A stretch of DNA of 14,505 nt from Bacteriovoracaceae bacterium (GCA_049599895.1 JBMYPC010000080.1:1-14505), one strand, 5' to 3'. Counted from the first letter of the stretch, positions 5,264 to 14,505 are shown. Notes: generated by a model from the letters alone, not told the origin. Program-made: numbers and translations.

Positions 5264-5790
5264 TTGATCCTAATGATAAAAAAGACTTCCAAGATTTTAT
5301 GAACTCCAAAGGAGTTAATCCTCCAGAGGAATTAAGTAATAGAATATTGAGCTTTGTTCAAGCAGACTTAAACCCAGCTCATAAAGTTGTATTTTCAAAG
5401 CTTCTCGCCATTCAAGCGTTTATAGGTTTCTTGACTCTTACATTTTGCCCACAATTTAACCTTAGCTTAACTAATAACTTTGAAATTTTTCACTATTTTC
5501 ATCATAAGTTTGGAGAAAATATTTGTATGGCCATATGCGGTTCTATTTTTATGGGTAGTGGTGCCCTATTTGCGGCTTATCTTTTAAAACCTAGCGAAAT
5601 TAGAAAGATCAAAGAATCAAGATTCTTGTACTATACTTCCATATCAATAGTTGCTCTCTCGTTCTTTTTCTTATTAGGATCAGATATATACTTAACATTC
5701 GCAGCATTCTGGCTTTCAGGTTCTACAATTGGCGGCTTAGTTATATTTGAATTGAATAGGCTAATAAGAAAAGAAGTTTTCGACTATTAA
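5260..5790 (+). CDS. Putative membrane anti-sigma factor with Cys/His-rich loop
   Basis: ATGA overlap with the sigma gene; short soluble N-terminus then about 4 hydrophobic segments; FCPQF...FHYFHHKFGENICMAICG between TM1 and TM2. Confidence 0.68.
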   Translation: MIDPNDKKDFQDFMNSKGVNPPEELSNRILSFVQADLNPAHKVVFSKLLAIQAFIGFLTLTFCPQFNLSLTNNFEIFHYFHHKFGENICMAICGSIFMGSGALFAAYLLKPSEIRKIKESRFLYYTSISIVALSFFFLLGSDIYLTFAAFWLSGSTIGGLVIFELNRLIRKEVFDY

Positions 5791-5802
5791 GATTCAGTTG
5801 AC

Positions 5803-6203
5803 TCAATCATCACATAATTCACCAATGAAAAGATCAAGTTCGACATAACTGTTTTGTAACAGCTCATACTGTATGAACCCAATAGGAATTGTTTTAACTG
5901 AATAAATACTAGCATATCCCATAACTTTATTTTCTTTTATTAAAACTAAAATATAGTGACCATCTTGGGTTGTAGAATCCATTTATTTCGTACTGGCCCA
6001 AAGTCATCTCGACCTGTGATTTGTTCATAAGGACCAATCATATAACCATAGTCGTATTCATTACCTTCAATTAAAACGAACTTATTTGTCAGCATCTTTG
6101 CTACGTTCATGTCCGTATAGTTTTTAACTGGTGTAAAAAATATTTTTCTTGTAACTATCACCGTAATTATTAGCAATATAATTAAAACTGTCTTCTTAAT
6201 CAT
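5803..6203 (-). pseudogene. Frameshifted exported protein, paralog of 6228..6569
   Basis: Track ORF stops at 5946. A frame change near 5980 continues DSTTQDGHYILVLIKENKVMGYASIY...LCDD* (stop 5803-5805), which aligns with TSDGSVVIVLTKNKKVVGFVRI of the neighbour. Both share YDxGYxIxPYxxxxxRD. Confidence 0.72.
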
Positions 6204-6227
6204 TTAACTAAATCTCAAAAGATTGTT

Positions 6228-6569
6228 TTATTCTATCGATTGTAAAGGATTTTTAAGAGTGTCTGTTTCTTTACCGCGCAAGATACGAACAAAACCTACC
6301 ACTTTTTTATTTTTTGTAAGAACTATAACAACCGAACCATCACTCGTATTTCCATGCTCAAAAAGATTTCTTAACTCAGAGAAATCAACTCCATCTCTAT
6401 CCTTGAACTCATCGTAAGGCTGTATTACGTAACCTGAATCATATTTTTCGCTTCTAGGGAGCTTGGAGCTACGGATCAATGATTCCCTTATCACTTCTTT
6501 GTCAAAGCTGTCGTAAGGATCTAGCTGCATACAAGAAGTTAAAATCAATAAACTTATAACCTTAATCAT
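6228..6569 (-). CDS. Hypothetical lipoprotein (candidate immunity protein)
   Basis: MIKVISLLILTSC lipobox-type signal; ATGA overlap with the upstream DUF6973-like gene; paralog immediately downstream. Confidence 0.7.
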   Translation of the reverse strand: MIKVISLLILTSCMQLDPYDSFDKEVIRESLIRSSKLPRSEKYDSGYVIQPYDEFKDRDGVDFSELRNLFEHGNTSDGSVVIVLTKNKKVVGFVRILRGKETDTLKNPLQSIE

Positions 6570-7070
6570 TTTACTATTATCCTTAATTCATTTTTTTTGA
6601 TTGCCTCCAAAGCCTTTTGGCTTATCAAGTTTAAAAGATCTTTCTTCCCCCTAAGCTTCTCACCAACAATCATTCCCTTATTATTGTTATGCAAGTCCAT
6701 TTCTCTCTCAATTTTAGGTTGTCCTGGTTTTTCTTCATGAGCATCAAGAAATTTCTTTGCTCTTTCTTTTCCTAATCGAGCAGTAGAGATACCCGACCAT
6801 ACAAAATGTCTAAAAGCATCTACCTTATTATTACGGGCAAACATACCTGGAAAGGTTTTTGCCGTTAATTGGTAAGCATCTTTCATGCTGCGATACATTT
6901 GAAATGCGGCATATGGATCTTGCATTATAAGAATAGCTTCTTTCTTCATTTAAAACTATTTCTTCCCCATCTAGTTTAAACATGTTTCTAATTGCTGGGA
7001 GAATCTTGATTTCCATACTCTTTTCAATTCGTTTTGTAGATGAACTATCTTTACTCATATATACTTCCAA
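6566..7070 (-). pseudogene. DUF6973-like (DAFRH...DAHE...MDLHNN) protein, frameshifted near 6941-6947, 5' end degraded
   Basis: NKVDAFRHFVWSG, AKKFLDAHEE, EREMDLHNNNKG. Track ORFs 6831..7070 and 6566..6949 join as ...EEIVLNEE/EAILIMQDPYAA with a single-base shift in GAAGAAAGAAG. The 127-aa ORF from 6949 could still be translated alone. Confidence 0.68.
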
Positions 7071-7229
7071 TTCTCTTAAAGCTTTTCTTTATCTTTATTT
7101 ATCTAATATAGAAAAATACGACCAGAAACTATAGGTTTATAAAAACACCGCGATTTTAAGTAATTTTAGGCTATAATCAAAATGTAAACTCTCAAGGCAA
7201 ATTAAGAGGGTTCAAACGGTCTCAGAACC

Positions 7230-7372
7230 ACAGCACCATACAACACCATGACTTGTGGTTCAAAGTCTTTAATTTTATACACTTAAATGTCTTTCATGGT
7301 GCTGATTTTGGAGGTGAAACATGCTCTATAGAATCAAATATTTATCCAAAGAATGACGACAAAAATACTACA
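7230..7372 (-). repeat. att-like site, homologous to 11220..11307
   Basis: Minus strand 7316-7262 CACCTCCA-AAATCAGCACCATGAAAGACATTTAAGT-N7-ATTAAAGACTTT, then 14 nt, then GGTG-N6-GGTG (10-bp repeats at 7230-7249). TGTAGT/TGTCGT pair upstream at 7372-7356. Confidence 0.7.
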
Positions 7373-7447
7373 ATCTCTAACGATTTAATTTTAATGCACT
7401 TAAGGTCAATTTTTCACCATCTCAATTATTGAACACATGTTCTATGT

Positions 7448-7807
7448 TCAGTCGATATAGAAGCTTTTTATTATTTTAAAAACCTTATTTTTTCTAAAAA
7501 TAATCACTCTTTGATCATAGTCTGATGTCCCAGAATCTTGCTTTGTGTAGATCCAAGTTTCTTCAACAGCGTCATAATCCTTCACCAACTCTAGTGGCCT
7601 TCCTATAAGCTTGAGAACAACTTCGTCTTCCATGCCAAGCTTTATTTTACTAAAATTCTCTTCATTAAAGCTTTCTGCCCAAATTGTTCCTTCATCAATT
7701 GCCCAAACGACTCTCCAGAAGGCATCATTTATGCCATAGCCAAAGGTATACATATTACTTACAGTAGCCATAGAGAACATAACCGCAATCGCAAATAACA
7801 CCTTCAT
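7448..7807 (-). CDS. Exported/membrane-anchored SmpA/OmlA(BamE)-like domain protein (Y, copy 1)
   Basis: N-terminal hydrophobic segment; FNEENFSKIKLGMEDEVVLKLIGRP...WIY...IIF...V pattern; roughly 40-45% identical by manual count to 12673..13041; ATGA overlap with the upstream gene. Confidence 0.8.
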   Translation of the reverse strand: MKVLFAIAVMFSMATVSNMYTFGYGINDAFWRVVWAIDEGTIWAESFNEENFSKIKLGMEDEVVLKLIGRPLELVKDYDAVEETWIYTKQDSGTSDYDQRVIIFRKNKVFKIIKSFYID

Positions 7808-8388
7808 CCTCTACCTCGCTTTGAGAAGTTATTTAAAATTGATTTATCTCTTTTACTCCTGATATAGGGGTTCCCTCTTTGAGGGAAAACAGGCCTTGCG
7901 TTATCTATTTCATGATGACAAACCATTTTGAAAGTTGTCTCAAAATCAAGCCATCCATGATCACTCACATTATAGGCTATGGTTTTTTTCTTTGAATTTC
8001 TTTTGACATCAAGAATGACTGTGAGCCGTTCTCCCCACTTTCCTTTTAAATATCTAGGCTTCTTATTATTAAAATGTTTCTCTGAAACTGCGACTTTAGC
8101 AATCGCAGAAACTCTCAAGCCCCTTCCGTCTGTAGAGACTTCAACTGTTGTAAAGTCATAAAACTTCCACCAGTTCTTATGTCTCTGAATTGCCTTACCA
8201 TCCACTCTTTTAAATCCATCAAAGTCGACTCCTTTTGGAGTTTTGAAGCCTCCTGGTAGAACTCGAGCAACAGGCCCACCAGTTGTATCATTTTCAACAA
8301 CCCAAAGATCAATCTTGGAATAATTTTTAACACTCCCATTAATTCCAAGTTTTTTCCAAATACTTTTAAGATAAGAAAAAGTGCTCAC
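7804..8388 (-). CDS. Basic two-domain protein: unknown N-domain plus DUF3892-like C-domain (X, copy 1)
   Basis: GTG start after TAAGGG; C-terminal ARPVFPQRGNPYIRSKRDKSILNNFS resembles the DUF3892 YxRSxxD...NNL motif; about 120/190 identities by manual count with 12104..12676. Confidence 0.82.
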   Translation of the reverse strand: MSTFSYLKSIWKKLGINGSVKNYSKIDLWVVENDTTGGPVARVLPGGFKTPKGVDFDGFKRVDGKAIQRHKNWWKFYDFTTVEVSTDGRGLRVSAIAKVAVSEKHFNNKKPRYLKGKWGERLTVILDVKRNSKKKTIAYNVSDHGWLDFETTFKMVCHHEIDNARPVFPQRGNPYIRSKRDKSILNNFSKRGRG

Positions 8389-8400
8389 ATTGAACCCTTA

Positions 8401-9175
8401 TTACTTTTTAAGCTTTTTTACAGTCTTAAGTGTCTGCTCAAGTTCTTCAAGATATTCTGTTTCACCTTCATCTCGCAAATGCTCTCTTTTCTTTTTTTCG
8501 GACAACCTTTCCATCAAAGCTCGTAAGCCCCATGTTAGGTTTATTACTGTCAGCCCTTTCTATGATTAGTTCGGCTGCAGTTTTTCCAGTTTCAGCAAAA
8601 AGAAGTTTATTTTGGATACTGGAAAAAAACTCTTTTGTTTTTGGATGATCTTTGGAGTAGTCCACACTAGTCTCTTTAACAAGATCTCGCACTTTTTGAT
8701 AAAACCTCTTCTCAGAGGCCCTAATATCTTTAATGCGCTCAAGAAGTTCATCAAAATAATCCCAGCCACCCGGCTCTTTAAGACGTTTGTCGTTCATAAC
8801 AAAGCCTTTAACCAAGTAATCATTAAGATGATCTGTTGCCCATCTTCTAAATTGAGTGCCACGTTCTGAACGAACTCTATATCCTACCGCCAAAATAGCC
8901 TTGAGATTATAGTGGTTTATTTCTCTTTCTACTTCTCTTGACCCTTCTTGTCGAACTATCCGGAAATTCCGGATAGTTGCTTTTTCCCTAAGCTCAATCT
9001 CCTCATAGATGTTTTTCAAGTGCTCATTAACCGTTTTAACACTGACAGTAAAAAGCTCTGCCATCTGATTCTGGGTTAACCAAATTGTTTGATTTTCATG
9101 GTCTAGCTTGATCTCAAGCTCAACTTCTCCATCCTCCGTACTATAAAGAATAATCTCACCTTCATTTGCTCTCAT
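8401..9175 (-). pseudogene. rhuM: RhuM-family DNA-binding protein with internal deletion and frameshift
   Basis: TIWLTQNQMAELF, YNLKAILAVGYRVRSERGTQFRRWAT, YFDELLERIKDIRASEKRFYQKV, KPNMGLTSF. After GKVVRKK the usual AKNYL...LNR...DW segment is missing, and a tail KREHLRDEGETEYLEELEQTLKTVKKLKK* sits in another frame ending at 8401. Confidence 0.85.
8954..8978. repeat. Perfect 12-bp inverted repeat with 1-nt centre inside rhuM
   Basis: AACTATCCGGAA-A-TTCCGGATAGTT, encoding the ATIRNFRIV segment. Confidence 0.9.
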
Positions 9176-9519
9176 AAGTTTCTCCCAACACTCAGTAGGA
9201 CTTTTTGCTTCTCAAGGCCTAGAGACTTCACAAGCTTTATTAGTTGATCTTCAACACTCTCATCTGTGGTTTGCTTACACTTTGAGTTAAATAACCGTTT
9301 GCTCACGCCATATACATCTAAAATACTCTGCAAGTCTTCACCACTAGGCACATCAAGGCGACCCTTTTCAATATGGCGAAGATAGGCCTCAGACTTAGCT
9401 AAACGTCTTGCCGACTCTCTTATGGAAAATCCACTCAACAGTCTTAGCTCCTTAAGAACTCTTGCCTCTTTGGTCAATTTTATTTCTTCTGTTCGTCGGT
9501 GTCTAAGTTTCGTTTTCAA
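9172..9519 (-). CDS. Xre/Cro-family HTH transcriptional regulator
   Basis: LKELRLLSGFSIRESARRLAKSEAYLRHIEKGR HTH. TTG at 9519 preceded by GAGAGGAAAG is preferred over the track start 9570. ATGA overlap with rhuM. Confidence 0.82.
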   Translation of the reverse strand: MKTKLRHRRTEEIKLTKEARVLKELRLLSGFSIRESARRLAKSEAYLRHIEKGRLDVPSGEDLQSILDVYGVSKRLFNSKCKQTTDESVEDQLIKLVKSLGLEKQKVLLSVGRNL

Positions 9520-9535
9520 TCTTTCCTCTCTGAAA

Positions 9536-9611
9536 TGACTACAGTGCGTAGTCAAAAATACAAGACTCATTCGATAACTACAAGACTTTGTCGTTCGTCA
9601 CTACAACTACA
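9536..9611. promoter_or_regulatory. Palindrome TGACTAC-N5-GTAGTCA plus clustered ACTACA/TACAAGACT repeats
   Basis: Palindrome at 9536-9554; TACAAGACT at 9559 and 9579; ACTACA at 9538, 9577, 9600, 9606 and again at 9787 and 9797. Confidence 0.6.
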
Positions 9612-9709
9612 ATGATTTTGAATGATTTCCAGTGGTATGGCCAGATGCCGTAAAAATGGCGGACAGACTATCAATGGCTTATGATTAAAGGAGTTAGGGA
9701 GAAAGGGTG

Positions 9710-9733
9710 CCACCACTGAAAAACCAGTGGTGG
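9710..9733. repeat. 9-bp stem hairpin overlapping the tmRNA-type CCA end
   Basis: CCACCACTG-AAAAAC-CAGTGGTGG. Confidence 0.75.
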
Positions 9734-9750
9734 AGGTGGAGAGACCTCTC
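9728..9750 (-). other. tmRNA/tRNA-Ala-like 3' fragment (att core) with collapsed T-loop
   Basis: Minus strand GAGAG-GT-CTCTC-CACCTCC-ACCA: 5-bp T-stem, 2-nt residual loop, 7-nt acceptor strand, ACCA end. Confidence 0.62.
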
Positions 9751-9808
9751 TAAGTTTTAGTAATTGTTGATAGAGATTCAAAAAGAACTACAGATCACTA
9801 CAAATTCT

Positions 9809-10912
9809 CTATTTTGCAGTCGATGAATTCCACTTAGTTTTACTTAAGACAAAGTAGGTTATGAAACCAACCATCATACCAGGAGCAACCTCGTACATCG
9901 TACCTCCAAGCCCAAACTCACGCCAAAATAAAGTAACTCCAACTCCATTTACGACCATCAGTATAGCCGTAGTTTCTGAAACTTTTTTTCCTAATGCATA
10001 CACAAGCATTAATGGCCCAAAAGCCGCTGACAAAACTGACCAAGCAATAAGAACAAGTTCAAATACATTTTTACTTCCGAATAACGCAATTAAAAGTGCT
10101 ACTACCGTCACAAGACCAGTTGTTACCTTTGTAATAAGAAGGGTATCTTTCTCTTTAGGTAAAATATCTCTAGTAAAGGCTGCACTACAGCTCAGTATTT
10201 GAGAGTCTGCAGTAGACATTGTCGCTGAAAAAATTCCAGCAAGTACGACACCAATTGAATTATCTATAGCTAATCCTGTTGGAGTTACATCTAAAAAACC
10301 AGGAGAAACGGCGTTCAATTTTGCAATATATTGATCAAAACCACCAACTTCACTTACTCCAACAAAAAAGAGCATAGACATAGCAAAGATCATAACGATT
10401 GATTGGGCCGCATCTGTCCAAATAGAAGCTCTAATTCCTCCAGATAGACAATAAAGAAATACGATAACACTACCAATGATTGCACCAGTACTATAATCCC
10501 AACCAAAAAGAACATGGAGCGCTTTACTTCCAGCTCTGAATTGAGCTGCAGCATACACTCCTAAAAAAACCACAGTTATAATACCAACTAACAATCTTAG
10601 TTTTCTAAAATCAGATCCATGCTGCCATCTTGATAAGACACCACCAAAACTTAACAAATTTTCACTTTCGGTAATTTTTCTTAATTTTTTATGAACAAAG
10701 AAACTCATAATAAGGTCACCAAAAATCCATCCAACCAACCATAAGCCAGATAGATTGAAGCCCAGAAGTATACGTGTAACCAATCATCCCAATAAACATA
10801 TAACCACTATTACTAGTGGCAATGGCAGATAACGCAGCCAACCAGGGAGGTATATCATGTCCAGCTAAAAGGTAATCAGAGTTGCTTCCCTTACTCTTGA
10901 ATAAGGAACTAG
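9809..10912 (-). pseudogene. Sodium:solute (PutP/OpuE-like proline) symporter pseudogene
   Basis: SDYLLAGHDIPPWLAALSAIATSNSGYMFIGMIGYTY in the upstream frame; 4-bp duplication (TCCATCCA, 10726-10733) shifts the frame; in-frame loss of the GQPH...ELAL region near 10250 (NSIG/VVLAGIFSATMSTADSQ); no start codon or first TM. Confidence 0.85.
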
Positions 10913-11106
10913 AGCTACAAGTATTTTTAGTATTCTATTATCTTGATAAGAAAATTGATTACACCTCCCTAGAGGGATGGGAGCTTTATCGAGATATTGA
11001 TTATGATACTTCAAAACCTGTTAAAACCCGTTTGTTCAATCAAGGGCAGATAATTACTAGTATAGAAAAAAAGAGAAAAAAACTTCTTTCAAAAAATAAA
11101 AAGTAA
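10910..11106 (+). pseudogene. Probable C-terminal fragment of an unknown gene abutting the truncated symporter 5' end
   Basis: Open frame ...LQVFLVFYYLDKKIDYTSLEGWELYRDIDYD...KNKK*. The track's start lies inside antisense symporter sequence, consistent with a deletion junction near 10910. Confidence 0.35.
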
Positions 11107-11202
11107 AATAAAAATCTTCAACCCTGATATAATTAAAAATGTAGGCCACTCTTGTCAGTCTTATCTTTACAGTTTTCACTTCAATTTATGATATTACAGC
11201 GC

Positions 11203-11307
11203 GGGGTGGCGACGACAAGCACCTCCACCAAAATCGACACCAGAAAGGCGGTTTAAGTTTTTGTTATTAAAGACTTTTATCTTTTTGGTTGGGTGCCACC
11301 GGGTGCC
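11203..11307 (+). other. Collapsed tmRNA-like remnant / att core plus island-end motifs
   Basis: GGGGTG-G-CGACGACAA-G-CACCTCCACCA (11203-11230), then AAATCGACACCAGAAAGGCGGTTTAAGT-N7-ATTAAAGACTTT, and GGGTGCC repeats at 11291 and 11301. Confidence 0.6.
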
Positions 11308-11323
11308 GGGGTTTTGGTGGAAA

Positions 11324-11378
11324 ATCAAATGCTTATAAAAATAAGCACCCCTTGGAAAATAAAATATAAGCATTTGAT
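11324..11378. promoter_or_regulatory. 14-bp perfect inverted repeat with an extra internal half-site upstream of the PIN operon
   Basis: ATCAAATGCTTATA (11324-11337) / TATAAGCATTTGAT (11365-11378); additional ATAAGCA at 11341-11347. Confidence 0.6.
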
Positions 11379-11431: not shown

Positions 11432-11899
11432 ATGAAAAAAATAAGAGTATTTGTTGATACGTCAGTTTTTGGCGGTTGTTTCGACGATGAATTTAGAAAA
11501 GATAGTGAGGCTTTCTTTAACTTGGTCAGGAAAGGTCGTTTTCAAGTTGTTGTCTCAGAATTGATTTTAGAAGAACTGAAAGGGGCACCTAGTGATGTCT
11601 TTGATGTTTTCTTTAACCTTCCGAATGAAAACAAAGAAATATTGATTGAGGGTGAAGAAGTTTTTGAACTTAAGGATGCCTATATTCAAGCAGGTGTTGT
11701 TACTAAAAAATCTGAAAATGATGCTTCTCATATTGCGATTGCCTCTATTGCCAAGGTTGACCTTATTGTAAGTTGGAACTTCAAACATATTGTCCACTTT
11801 GAAAAGATTCGAGGATACAACGGAATAAATATAATTAAGGGCTATCAGTCGATAAGTATTCATAGCCCAAGTGAGGTTATTGATTATGAAAAAGAATAA
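11432..11899 (+). CDS. PIN-domain (VapC-like) ribonuclease toxin
   Basis: RVFVDTSVFGG, VVSELILEEL, NDASHIAIA, DLIVSWNFKHIV; GAGG RBS. Confidence 0.9.
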   Translation: MKKIRVFVDTSVFGGCFDDEFRKDSEAFFNLVRKGRFQVVVSELILEELKGAPSDVFDVFFNLPNENKEILIEGEEVFELKDAYIQAGVVTKKSENDASHIAIASIAKVDLIVSWNFKHIVHFEKIRGYNGINIIKGYQSISIHSPSEVIDYEKE

Positions 11900-12083
11900 G
11901 AAGTTTGATTGTGTAAAAATGAAAAATGAAATTCAAGCTAAAATTCTAGAAGAGAAGAAAAAGTTCTCGTCAGAAGAAGAGTATAGAAAACATCGAATGG
12001 AAGAATTGATGAAAGATGAGCGCTTGAGCCAGCTTTTGAAAAATGCTAAAAAAATTGGTGATTCCAAAGGGGATGCGGCTTAA
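11886..12083 (+). CDS. Small charged protein downstream of PIN, probable antitoxin
   Basis: MKKNKKFDCVKMKNEIQAKILEE; ATG at 11886 overlaps the PIN 3' end and follows GAGG; 65 aa, predicted helical. Confidence 0.7.
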   Translation: MKKNKKFDCVKMKNEIQAKILEEKKKFSSEEEYRKHRMEELMKDERLSQLLKNAKKIGDSKGDAA

Positions 12084-12103
12084 TTGACATTAAGGGAAAA
12101 GAG

Positions 12104-12676
12104 ATGGGTTTATACAATAAGCTTAAGTCAATATGGAAGAAACTCGATATTAACGGGCAGGTGATAAATTATTCATCTAAAGAGTTGTGGGTTATTGAAA
12201 CAAAGAATGGCCCTGTCGCACGCATATTACGCCCTGGTTATAAAACACCGATTAAATTAGATATTGATGGATTTAAAAGAGTCGATGGCAAGGCTATAGA
12301 GAAGCATAAAAATTGGTGGAAATTTTACGATTTTTCAACAGTTGATGTATTTGATAATGGGGCGAATCTGAAGATTTCTGTTATTACAAAAATAGCAGTA
12401 GATGAAAATCATTTTAAAAAGCCTAAGTATTTGAAGGGACTATTTGGTGAACCTATTAGGGCCATTGTTGATATAAGAAGAAACAAAAAAGGCGTCATTG
12501 AGCAGTATAAAATATCAGATATTGGTTGGGTTAGCTTTGAGGATGCTTTTAAAATGGTTTGCTATCACGAGATTGATAATGCAAGACCTGTTTTTCCTAA
12601 AAATGGAAAACCTTATATTAGGTCAAAAAGAGATAAAAGTATTTTAAACAACTTGTCTCTCAAAGGAAAAGCATGA
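12104..12676 (+). CDS. Basic two-domain protein: unknown N-domain plus DUF3892-like C-domain (X', copy 2)
   Basis: ATG after TAAGGG; shares LKSIWKKL, GPVAR, DGFKRVDGKAI, HKNWWKFYDF, HEIDNARPVFP, PYIRSKRDKSILNN with 7804..8388. Confidence 0.82.
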   Translation: MGLYNKLKSIWKKLDINGQVINYSSKELWVIETKNGPVARILRPGYKTPIKLDIDGFKRVDGKAIEKHKNWWKFYDFSTVDVFDNGANLKISVITKIAVDENHFKKPKYLKGLFGEPIRAIVDIRRNKKGVIEQYKISDIGWVSFEDAFKMVCYHEIDNARPVFPKNGKPYIRSKRDKSILNNLSLKGKA

Positions 12677-13041
12677 AACTCTTAAAAGCATCTCTTGCCA
12701 TGAGCATAATATTTCTTTTTGGTGTTGGTATTAATATGTACAGATTTGGATATGGTTTTGAAGATGGTTTCTTTAGAACTTTGTTAGCGCCAATGGAAGG
12801 AACAGTGTGGGCCGATGGCTTTTCGGAAGAGGCTTTTGATAAAATAAGTATAGGGATGACAGCAGAGCAGGTTTTTTCTATTTTAGGTGAGCCCCTTGAA
12901 AAAGATAGTGATTGTCATAAGTTATGTTTTTGGACCTACTCATGGCAGGATACTCAGACTGCTGATTTTGACCAAAGGTGGGTAGTTTTTAATAGTCAAA
13001 ACCAGGTTATTGAAAAACGAAAGAGCTTTTTTATAGATTGA
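12673..13041 (+). CDS. Exported/membrane-anchored SmpA/OmlA(BamE)-like domain protein (Y', copy 2)
   Basis: Hydrophobic N-terminus; FSEEAFDKISIGMTAEQVFSILGEP...WTY...DQRWVVF; paralog of 7448..7807; ATGA overlap. Confidence 0.8.
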   Translation: MKLLKASLAMSIIFLFGVGINMYRFGYGFEDGFFRTLLAPMEGTVWADGFSEEAFDKISIGMTAEQVFSILGEPLEKDSDCHKLCFWTYSWQDTQTADFDQRWVVFNSQNQVIEKRKSFFID

Positions 13042-13351
13042 TTCTAAGTATTGCTACGCTTCATTTAGTGCCGTGGTGTTGTTGAGATTCCAGGTGGTTA
13101 AGCTGTATTGGCCCTATTTCAATGCTGAATGAATTGTTGCTCATGCAGGAGGGGAGAATCAAACCCACTGTGGGAACCGTACTCATTTCTTAAGTTTGTT
13201 TTTAGTTTGCTCCACAAGAGTGTGGTTCTTCCTATCTTGGAAAGTTCATAGATGTTTCGCTGTGAGGATTGACTTCTCATTGAAATATTCAATCGAGTAT
13301 TTGTGTGGTAAATAATTTTAGTACAAATTTTAAATTAGAGAGAAGATTTTG

Positions 13352-13689
13352 ATGAAGTTTGAATATCTTGAAAGAGGTGATCCAGAGATTTGTGAAGTAG
13401 TACTTCGCTCTGTTCCTGATTGGTTTGGGATAGAAGAATCAACGGTTGCTTACATAAATAAGTCTAAAGAACTTCCTATGATTAGTGCGTTTGAGGATGG
13501 AAAGGCTATTGGTTTTTTATCACTATTGCAACACAGTCAATATACCACCGAAGTGTATGTCATGGGAGTTGTTCCCGAATATCATCGTAAAGGTGTTGGG
13601 AAAAAGTTATTGATTGAGGCGGAAAAGGTTTTAGCAAAAAATGGAATAGAGTTCTTACAAGTTAAAACAGTAAGTGCTGATAGAGAGTG
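13352..13689 (+). pseudogene. GNAT acetyltransferase truncated by IS3 insertion
   Basis: VPDWFGIEES, EVYVMGVVPEYHRKGVGKKL (acetyl-CoA motif A), FLQVKTV. The track ORF's last residues EVPQKHWTFFL are IS-derived. Confidence 0.85.
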
Positions 13690-13753
13690 TGAAGTTCCCC
13701 AAAAACACTGGACATTTTTTCTGTAGCGGTTATAACTCTGGGAGGAGTAAACC

Positions 13754-14077
13754 GTGGAAACAAAACCTAAGAAGAATTCTTACAGTAAAGAGTTTAAAAT
13801 TCAAGCAGTTGAGCGTTGTAAAGTCGTTGGCATAAAGAAGGCCAGCGAGGAGTTGGGTGTCTGTACAGCTTCTCTTTCAAACTGGAAAAAGCTCTTTGAT
13901 CCATCATCGGACAAGTCAAAATCTAAAGACAAGCCTACTTACGAGGAGCTTCAAAAAGAAGTTATAAGACTCAGAAAAGAGCTTGGCTATGTTGAAGAGA
14001 TCAACGACATTCTAAAAAAAGTACGGCAATCTTTTCGAACGACAAGTTTCGAGGTTCGAAGTGATTTCTTTCGTTAA
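13754..14077 (+). CDS. IS3 OrfA (HTH transposase subunit)
   Basis: YSKEFKIQAV...ASEELGVCTASLSNWKK...LRKEL...NDILKK; GGAGG RBS, GTG start. The native-looking tail STAIFS is out of frame, suggesting one A was lost from the run at 14014-14020. Confidence 0.85.
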   Translation: METKPKKNSYSKEFKIQAVERCKVVGIKKASEELGVCTASLSNWKKLFDPSSDKSKSKDKPTYEELQKEVIRLRKELGYVEEINDILKKVRQSFRTTSFEVRSDFFR

Positions 14078-14505
14078 GACTGAGAGCTCGATAAACATTC
14101 CAACCCGCTTTCTCTGCCGTCATTTCAGAGTAAGCCCCAGTGGGTATTATCACTGAAAGAAACGTCACTCTGGGATCAGATTTGTGAATAAGGAATCAAT
14201 CTGTAAAAGGATCAAGGAGATCTTTGAAGAGAGTAAAGAAACTTATGGTTCTCCTCGAATCTTCGAAACCTTAAAAGATGAGAATTTATCAATCTCTTCC
14301 CTCAAGACCAGGAGAGCTTCTCGCTGGAGATATTACTTACCTGAGGCTTGGGAAGAGCTTTTTTTACCTCTCGGTTGTCATTGATCTTTTTAATCGAGAG
14401 ATTCTTGGTTGGTCGATGGGAAACAGTCTTGAGACGAAACTTGTTCTTGACTCGCTTGATATGGCGATGAAAAAAGTTGGTCCTGATGCGGAAGTGATTT
14501 TTCAT
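14020..14505 (+). pseudogene. IS3 OrfB (DDE transposase) with nonsense codon and internal deletion
   Basis: LCRHFRVSPSGYYH* (TGA 14154-14156 where W is expected); deletion and frame change near 14296 between ENLSIS and LPSRPGELLAGDITY. Confidence 0.85.

Follow-up and report, generated by a model that had tools for sequence, protein, structure and literature searches.

The 14,505-nt stretch of DNA described here (the window; GCA_049599895.1, JBMYPC010000080.1:1-14505) is a whole contig, C80, of the assembly of a Bacteriovoracaceae bacterium (3.27 Mb in 266 contigs, 97.45% complete), and the sites in question are copies of the 3' end of ssrA, the gene for transfer-messenger RNA (tmRNA). The window is probably a decayed and rearranged piece of a tmRNA-targeted stack, the units of which likely hitch-hike on, or borrow the integrase of, an autonomous island. 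Copies of the ssrA end and the conserved arms that accompany them likely mark the serial insertion of islands and of recombinase-free units. A preliminary description, made from the sequence alone, had proposed small integrase-less units of integron-like layout, bounded by attachment (att) sites of tmRNA type and mobilized in trans, or alternatively relics of islands that lost their integrases. Such units do occur family-wide in relatives, the window itself being mostly decayed; the relic alternative fits the window better, in view of the segment between sites B and A, the broken symporter and RhuM genes and the eroded site A described below; and mobilization in trans is not supported, the single junction found in relatives showing carriage with an integrase island, in cis.

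In the following, G numbers denote genomes (G000 is the host), L numbers family loci or records, and C numbers contigs. The host family is likely Bacteriovoracaceae, a group of marine and likely predatory bacteria. Sequence behind ssrA was examined in 30 family loci, and up to 20 kb behind ssrA was fetched for 40 further stretches. No description of ssrA cassette stacks in Bacteriovoracaceae was found in the literature searched, supplements and subscription journals being outside the search. In the accessible portions of their texts, an account of Bacteriovorax As-1 reports no integron (PMC12642874), and another treats tandems of integrative and conjugative elements (ICEs) only (PMC5812530).

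Copies of the ssrA 3' End

The host ssrA lies on contig C83 (5920-6285, minus strand) and ends in TCTCGC-CACCTCCACCA. The 11-mer CACCTCCACCA, its exact 3' end, has three copies in the genome, one in ssrA and two in the window at 9738 (minus) and 11220 (plus); these two window matches (9728-9738 and 11220-11230) compare with 0.01 expected from 200 shuffles. None of the host tRNAs found ends in this sequence, and the original assignment of the core to the ssrA end is upheld. The cores of sites B and C are the exact 11-mer, while that of site A is the 8-mer CACCTCCA, 3 nt shorter. Each core is followed by co-oriented genes, as first described. That the sites are themselves hidden tRNA or tmRNA genes was considered and rejected because ARAGORN and Rfam detect no RNA gene in the window. 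A scan of the window for promoters and terminators gave chance level only.

The window and ssrA could be physically linked, since right sites sharing the strand of ssrA are found 46-180 kb behind that gene in G021 and G138 (up to 150 kb in G021 and 180 kb in G138); this makes linkage possible and does not prove it. The distant right sites of G021 also stand beside czc genes, and a heavy-metal efflux cluster occupies the left part of the window.

Four Sites and Two Types of Left Arm

The sites are as follows, a right site being a block of about 80 bp that comprises a TGTAGT pair, a box resembling a binding site of integration host factor (IHF), and the core.

9728..9807, minus strand: site B, an intact right site with TGTAGT at 9802 and 9792, an IHF-like box and core CACCTCCACCA at 9738-9728
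9540..9727, minus strand: TGTAGT-type left arm behind B, with a hairpin at 9710-9733 overlapping the core, a CACTGGAAATCA box, and TGTAGT at 9611, 9605, 9582 and 9543
7309..7372, minus strand: left half of site A, read as an eroded right arm with the shortened core CACCTCCA at 7316-7309
7219..7307, minus strand: right half of site A, a GGTG-type left arm with an IHF-like box and GGTG-N6-GGTG
11220..11336, plus strand: site C, an exact core (11220-11230) and a GGTG-type left arm, in the orientation opposite to A and B
13064..13346, plus strand: site D, the coreless distal half of a GGTG-type left arm plus leader, preceding a GNAT gene

Site B begins 7 nt past the stop codon of a symporter gene. 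It was matched by a hidden Markov model (HMM) of 59 non-window right sites with 49.8 bits (E 1.3e-12), the only significant match in G000, and an ungapped weight matrix scored it at 39.8 against 17.8 for the next best match, missing A and C. A profile scan of the kind that had been proposed recovers B in the host, A and C not reaching significance. A T-stem had been reported at 9728-9750; it is not the ssrA T arm, which in the host reads GCGAG-TTCGATT-CTCGC, but the core-proximal part of the right site. The sequence behind core B resembles that behind ssrA in G024, G020, G046, G013, G065 and G069: positions 9644-9572 were matched by a five-sequence model of ssrA-adjacent arms (20.3 bits, E 5e-4 genome-wide), though missed by a broader 13-sequence left-arm model, and the first 35 nt are 89% identical to the G024 ssrA end. 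The hairpin overlapping the core has a folding z of -3.0. Site B is a hybrid junction of right arm, core and TGTAGT-type left arm, a combination of right site and left arm also present in L156, L263, L269, L313 and L315.

Sites A and C carry another arm, so that the three att sites first regarded as equivalent do share ssrA-type cores with arms and differ in the kind of arm, B joining a right site to a TGTAGT-type left arm and A and C having GGTG-type left arms. A model built from the arms of G021, G014 and G233 matched the arm of A with 66.8 bits (E 4e-18) and that of C with 37.0 bits (E 7e-9); at A the identity to G021 is 82% over 127 nt. The alignment of A with C holds, including the 14-nt interval before the GGTG pair: ATTAAAGACTTT-N14-GGTG-N6-GGTG lies at 7234-7273 (minus) and 11266-11305 (plus), with none in 200 shuffles, and the two arms form an inverted repeat of 53 nt at 74% identity. 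The arm behind core C is what directly follows ssrA in G014, the remaining 5.5 kb of that contig showing no integrase, and a GGTG-type arm follows an intact right site in G021, G233, G059 and L300. Upstream of C no right arm was detected, the right-site HMM matching only the core. At A, the TGTAGT pair first reported for both minus-strand cores is reduced to a single TGTAGT at the family spacing (7372, 50 nt before the core), in contrast to the intact pair at B. From its position, and from the intact right sites joined to GGTG arms in G021, G233 and L300, the left half of A would be an eroded right site. Site D, a fourth arm missing from the preliminary description, is 89% identical over 57 nt to the L300 arm (E 4.6e-14 against G000), and the similarity runs on to the first gene. 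A, C and D are the left ends of a second, GGTG-arm element type. Allowing two mismatches, a search for GGTG arms matched 19 of 238 genomes with 10 matches in the control; the arms used here are accordingly the five exact matches (two in G000, and G021, G014 and G233) and a second G021 copy. Folding of these arms is weak (z -1.7 and -1.9, not significant), and a GGGGTG...CACCTC pairing at C, considered as a mini-ssrA, was rejected at z 0.62.

Three further matches were seen near these sites or elsewhere in the host. At 11200-11211 (minus), in a GC-rich patch and 8 nt short of core C, TCGCCACC matches the ssrA end over 8 nt in inverted orientation; noticed post hoc, it is possibly the remnant of a second, head-to-head core. 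Within the leader of site D, 13140-13167 (minus) agrees with family ssrA genes, over their T arm and end, at 21 of 28 positions; this match is missing from the alignment with the L300 leader and may be chance. Contig C75 of the host, rich in small cassette-like genes, holds an orphan left arm of the TGTAGT family (5633-5712, minus; E 3e-7) with a terminator-like hairpin and without an ssrA core.

The Right-Site Family in Relatives

At the family loci, further core copies lie downstream of ssrA, with a TGTAGT pair some 50 nt ahead of them. The pattern GTAGT-N4-6-GTAGT-N47-53-CACCTCCA was present in 38 of 238 genomes of the class, its reversed control in none, and outside the family in 1 of 200 other phylum genomes. 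In strict form it gave 63 stretches, some overlapping, among 185,579 species genomes; the record titles name Bacteriovoracaceae (42), Halobacteriovorax (4), Bacteriovoracia (1), Bdellovibrionales, Bdellovibrionota or Oligoflexia (6), a Delta- or Epsilonproteobacteria bacterium (8) and Succinivibrionaceae genera (2). The right-site family may reach beyond Bdellovibrionota. The two Succinivibrionaceae records, L202 (136-212, minus) and L247 (479-555, minus), show the same right-site geometry. A viral collection yielded one match, under the site-HMM threshold and within a phage gene region, which was taken as chance.

The box between arm and core, which we take to be IHF-like from the IHF consensus (at most one mismatch), stands at two fixed offsets in 26 of 59 sites, compared with a mean of 3.6 and a maximum of 9 in 200 spacer shuffles. 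The sites do not fold: z is 0.16 and -0.06 for B and averages -0.1 over the 59 family sites, both strands included. An attC-like folding of right sites was rejected, with z near 0 and attC boxes in none of the 59.

Among 104 distinct right sites, 101 have upstream context. The gene before the site is co-oriented with it in 88 and on the opposite strand in 13, and 65 of the 88 lie within 30 nt of the stop of that gene (median 13.5). Downstream of 98 usable sites, six match the broad left-arm model, one of them counted only because the next right site is 136 bp off, and three match the GGTG model. Right sites close both integrase islands and small units that have neither left arm nor integrase.

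Stacks of Integrase-less Units

Stacks of right sites stand behind integrase islands or occur where there is no such island. Up to six right sites follow one another in a stack (six in G075; five in G059 and in G178:C200), and three stand directly behind ssrA in G009 and G178:C140; stacks start immediately behind ssrA in G009, G041, G178 and L274. The units from right site to right site (54 distinct) measure 136-4441 bp with a median of 1271 bp, figures drawn from loci of at most 20 kb, many of 6-8 kb, and including near-duplicates from the same strains. None of the 54 has an integrase match or a left arm. Of the 53 unit open reading frames (ORFs) listed, 52 were scanned; they include GNAT, glyoxalase, SnoaL, nucleotidyltransferase, ORF6N, peptidase and BCCT transporter families and many unknown secreted proteins. 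No recombinase family appeared among these 52, while the same scan found PF00589 in two island integrases.

Several comparisons between relatives concern single units. In L268, a one-gene unit of 3,058 bp lies between two cores; it is missing at that core in G041, where the flanks are 94-97% identical. The right arm of this unit is itself degenerate, and behind the core the two sequences differ by 2-4 nt. Between G178 and G170, a cupin/TetR unit shows 93% identity core to core, the match running from 10 nt ahead of the unit to 6 nt past it, within unrelated flanks and behind upstream right sites of different types. Both cases fit excision or insertion of a single unit, and also accretion or repeat-mediated deletion. 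G020 and G075 have an epimerase unit with the same leader at its start, and homologous ORF6N units likewise start at the core. A gene and right site common to G124 and G178 (96%) have an upstream boundary that is not a core, which counts against a purely site-bound origin.

These comparisons bear on whether all right-site-only units are eroded ends of large islands, frozen or passively moved, their integron look a by-product of deletion. Such an origin is plain for the B-to-A segment of the window, which derives from an XRE-integrase island, and it agrees with the non-core boundary in G124 and G178; accretion alone can also explain the differing neighbors of the G178/G170 unit. As a general account it is nevertheless unlikely. 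Right arms are intact while left arms are missing in all 54 units, sites hug stop codons, the homologous epimerase and ORF6N units begin at the core with the same leader, and the internal unit of L268/G041 was gained or lost at a core.

Joint movement of several units is suggested by two metagenome contigs, L271 and L278, in which the last right site of the G069 stack is joined to the ssrA-side left arm of the G069 island. Excision of the island along with two integrase-less units would be expected to produce such a junction. An exact terminal-repeat test for circles gave none in L270/L271, L276/L277 and 57 loci.

Other features of the stacks were recorded. One-gene ORF6N units in L163, L164, L165, L274 and L284 occur many to a single stack, at 52-76% protein identity. 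Empty micro-units, similar to microCIMEs (CIMEs being the cis-mobilizable elements considered below), are delimited by two right sites 136 bp apart that precede an XRE-integrase island (L156:13610-13825) and by a right site some 250 nt past the ssrA core (L083:698-777). In L105/L072 (G059), four consecutive units have a small toxin-antitoxin-like pair apiece, encoded on the opposite strand, an arrangement known from large integron arrays.

Integrases of the Islands

Islands behind ssrA in relatives encode a tyrosine integrase family of 346-381 aa (PF00589), with L029:5747-6880 and L065:7595-8689 among its members, and the order left arm, XRE gene, integrase gene, the last two directly adjacent, recurs in G015, G022, G066, G076 and L156. 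An integrase with matching arms beside ssrA, which had been suggested as a search target, is found in the islands of G020 and G069, which have TGTAGT arms at both ends; in the host, the arm of the C83 integrase matches neither left-arm model. That protein, from the host's own ssrA island, is a divergent tyrosine integrase of 441 aa with R-H-R motifs, at the PF00589 cut-off and unrelated to the island family at phmmer level. None of the seven PF00589 matches in G000 belongs to the island family; the best match to that family in G000 scores 61 bits compared with 430-610 for full-length members, and there was no match at 1e-40. Against TIGR02249 (IntI), three island integrases and the C83 integrase score 21.7-36.8 bits, the cut-off being 265.

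The island behind host ssrA (C83:1-5920) also carries XRE genes and small ORFs. C83 and C68 have the same first 55 nt, upstream of unrelated genes. The ends of C13 (35 kb) share 55 nt, as do those of C100 (11.3 kb), which marks both contigs as circular; C13 is phage-like, with an integrase.

Cargo and Decay of the Window

The genes of the window that accompany its sites are listed below.

9172..9570, minus strand: XRE helix-turn-helix regulator (Pfam HTH_31/HTH_3)
8390..9175, minus strand: RhuM-family gene with an internal deletion; ORF of 235 aa at 8468-9175, C-terminal tail out of frame
7448..8388, minus strand: two-gene unit, a DUF3892-like protein (7804-8388) and a BamE-like small lipoprotein (7448-7807)
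5946..6949, minus strand: cargo behind A, a DUF6973 protein (6566-6949) and two small ORFs
9809..10920, minus strand: pseudogene of a sodium:solute symporter (SSF, PutP-like), closed by site B
11432..13041, plus strand: cargo behind C, a PIN toxin, a putative antitoxin and a second DUF3892-like and BamE-like pair
13349..14505, plus strand: GNAT gene followed by an IS3-family element (Pfam Acetyltransf_1, HTH_Tnp_1, HTH_21)

Behind the left arm of B, the XRE gene (48% to its homologue in G013, 32% to G046, 52% to L315) corresponds to the one placed after the left arm in the ssrA islands of relatives, and RhuM occupies the place where the integrase would stand. RhuM covers Pfam positions 1-164 of 252 and is 83% identical over 229 aa to a 342-aa protein of G046; with the HTH gene, it gave the only PADLOC matches in the window (RhuM as PDC-S05). 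In G046, an 8.9-kb element runs from left arm through XRE and a full RhuM (83%) to an intact right site with no integrase among its 8 ORFs, and both-ended integrase-less elements therefore exist. By this comparison, the B-to-A segment appears to be a left arm-XRE island that lacks its integrase and most of its right arm. SSF and site B are a right-site-only unit, now a pseudogene: the 5' end is lost, and there are a 4-nt insertion near 10745 and a 267-bp in-frame deletion near 10255. Intact SSF genes (470-492 aa) in the relatives' loci examined have no right site behind them, and in G023, G003, G015 and G004 the gene runs into a partner gene of about 290 aa.

No integrase family was found among the 22 window proteins scanned with Pfam, and no closing right site was found behind the cargo of A or behind the short cargo runs of C and D. 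The plus-strand ORF at 10882-11106 has no Pfam or tblastx match, and the IS3-family element continues into contig C112 (55-nt end overlap). The DUF3892-like and BamE-like pair at 7448-8388 (minus) is a paralogue of that at 12104-13041 (plus; 67% at the DNA level); it precedes an intact right site by 10 nt in L269 and stands before a TGGCTA-type site in G050. The pair recurs in relatives' islands (G050, G024 twice, and L269) and looks like a mobile two-gene module. Among 40 relatives none holds the window region, the matches in 11 of them being single genes or sites; of the sequencing runs compared with the window one, X1 (possibly the source sample), holds the region, the share in X2 being 0.06.

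A decayed relic of a cassette stack fits the window better than live cassettes because B alone is intact, SSF and RhuM have suffered deletions, and B-to-A starts as a left arm and XRE module; because C is inverted; and because the 97%-complete assembly holds no island-family integrase. It is quite unlikely that the window's own units, B-to-A and C-to-D, are live non-autonomous cassettes mobilized in trans, although B is intact and both left arms are well conserved, the G046 element shows both ends without an integrase, and an integrase with R-H-R motifs resides at the host ssrA. The right arm and core of A are damaged, the units behind A and C lack a closing right site, both RhuM and SSF are disrupted, and the C83 integrase, unrelated to the island family at phmmer level, has an arm that matches neither left-arm model. 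The parts of the window are probably immobile except through B.

A Model for Stack Movement

In a mechanism consistent with these features, the island integrase would bind the TGTAGT repeats through its N-terminal domain, IHF would bend the spacer between arm and core, and double-stranded DNA would undergo strand exchange within the final 11-14 nt of ssrA. An island landing ahead of a stack could then excise by way of a distal right site and take units along, as the junction in relatives would suggest, and excision between two cores may also release a single unit (core, gene, right site). The evidence favors hitch-hiking in cis over mobilization in trans. A further-reaching reading, held tentatively and with the balance slightly against it, would make the system a counterpart of the integron, based on double-stranded att sites of lambda type: one-gene cassettes with a right arm only would arise with their site immediately past the stop codon and would be moved singly, at any ssrA core, by the integrase of a transient island acting in trans, giving an ordered family-wide gene pool of which the window would be a fossil that includes a captured host-type symporter gene.

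Several points weigh against the proposal of a tmRNA-targeted stack served by autonomous islands. The right arm of A scores 1.5 bits with the right-site HMM (E 6.9 within the window), not significant alone. The window and ssrA lie on separate contigs (C80 and C83). The pairing of the island integrase with the arms is deduced from co-location only. Loci no longer than 20 kb under-sample long, island-sized units, and near-duplicates occur among the units counted. Deletion between 13-nt repeats could account for the L268/G041 difference, and a tandem duplication for the L271/L278 junction. Contigs of four sequencing runs contain neither circular junctions, as had been suggested, nor any other joint at a window site, so that recombination of the window is unobserved. 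Finally, in all 82 loci with at least two right sites these lie on one strand, and the normal model leaves the inverted site C unexplained.

Because right sites are co-oriented in 82 of 82 loci, the back-to-back join and strand switch near 10920 would be a later rearrangement. That the head-to-head layout around C is instead an assembly artefact of a metagenome bin is very improbable. No listed X1 contig spans 11205-11237, which contains core C; contigs break elsewhere in the window too, however, so that this gap proves nothing, and X1 contigs cover 5486-8878, which includes site A, and 8853-11204, with B, SSF and the strand switch, at even depth. This support is not independent, since X1 may be the source sample.

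Relation to Known Systems

Integron attC sites are palindromic and act as single-strand hairpins with RYYYAAC/GTTRRRY boxes. The stacks resemble integrons in their co-oriented one- or two-gene arrays, in the site just past the stop codon, and in a cargo of GNATs, glyoxalases, toxin-antitoxin pairs and small secreted proteins. They differ in their site, which has a conserved sequence, shows no folding and lacks attC boxes; in addition, the integrase does not belong to the IntI family, ssrA serves as the anchor, and the array needs no resident integrase beside it.

Closer parallels are found among integrative islands. As far as the available text describes them, the Dehalococcoides ssrA islands stand in tandem behind ssrA, bounded by copies of its 3' end, and 15 lack the integration module and are proposed to be cis-mobilizable (McMurdie et al. 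2011, PMC3146451); tandem elements, 3'-end boundaries and integrase-less members are thus common to both systems. Those islands use a serine recombinase, DsiB, encoded in a six-gene module, and a 20-bp repeat, according to the same text (PMC3146451), whereas in the relatives considered here the integrases are of a tyrosine family, arm repeats and an IHF-like box accompany a core of 11-14 nt, and most units have one or two genes with the site directly past the stop codon. Streptococcal CIMEs, in the portion of the source available, are integrase-less, share a 3'-end target with an autonomous neighbor with which they leave, and show hybrid sites in tandems (PMC7563491). The B-to-A segment and the G046 element fit that description as far as it goes. 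No recombination or conjugation genes were found among the window proteins and scanned unit ORFs, no search having been aimed at relaxase or type IV secretion genes in the islands. CIMEs are presented there as decayed ICEs or integrative and mobilizable elements that keep their att sites and are moved by conjugation (PMC7563491), whereas the left end of most units here is a bare core without a left arm. Retention of att sites varies: B-to-A keeps its left arm with an eroded right one, the family units have a right arm only, and the G046 element has both.

Islander-type islands at tRNA and tmRNA genes have ends marked by displaced gene fragments, and a tandem member is counted only with its own integrase, in the accessible account (PMC4383910). 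Prochlorococcus tycheposons carry integrases, with island filler that has no regular site behind each gene in the part of the report available (bioRxiv 10.1101/2020.12.28.424599). As these partly available sources describe such islands, the likeness lies in tyrosine integrases at the 3' ends of tRNA-type genes, in newcomers that displace older elements, and in remnants that accumulate; the window has no integrase of its own, and its site C is inverted relative to A and B. The system works in the manner of CIME accretion at ssrA, with an integron-like layout, and is not an integron.

Implications for Gene Capture in Predatory Bacteria

If single right-site-only units recombine alone, they would constitute a second, independently evolved route to integron-style gene capture. 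Such a route would be invisible to IntegronFinder, which needs attC or IntI, and to Islander, which needs an integrase for each island, and it would offer a tractable case of cassette genesis, that is, of how a site comes to sit behind a captured gene. Its 80-bp site and its target would be defined, and its integrases known by name and amenable to assay in E. coli. If only accretion holds, the stacks would still be a clean, family-wide CIME-like system in predatory bacteria, to which the window adds a decayed example and a second arm type.

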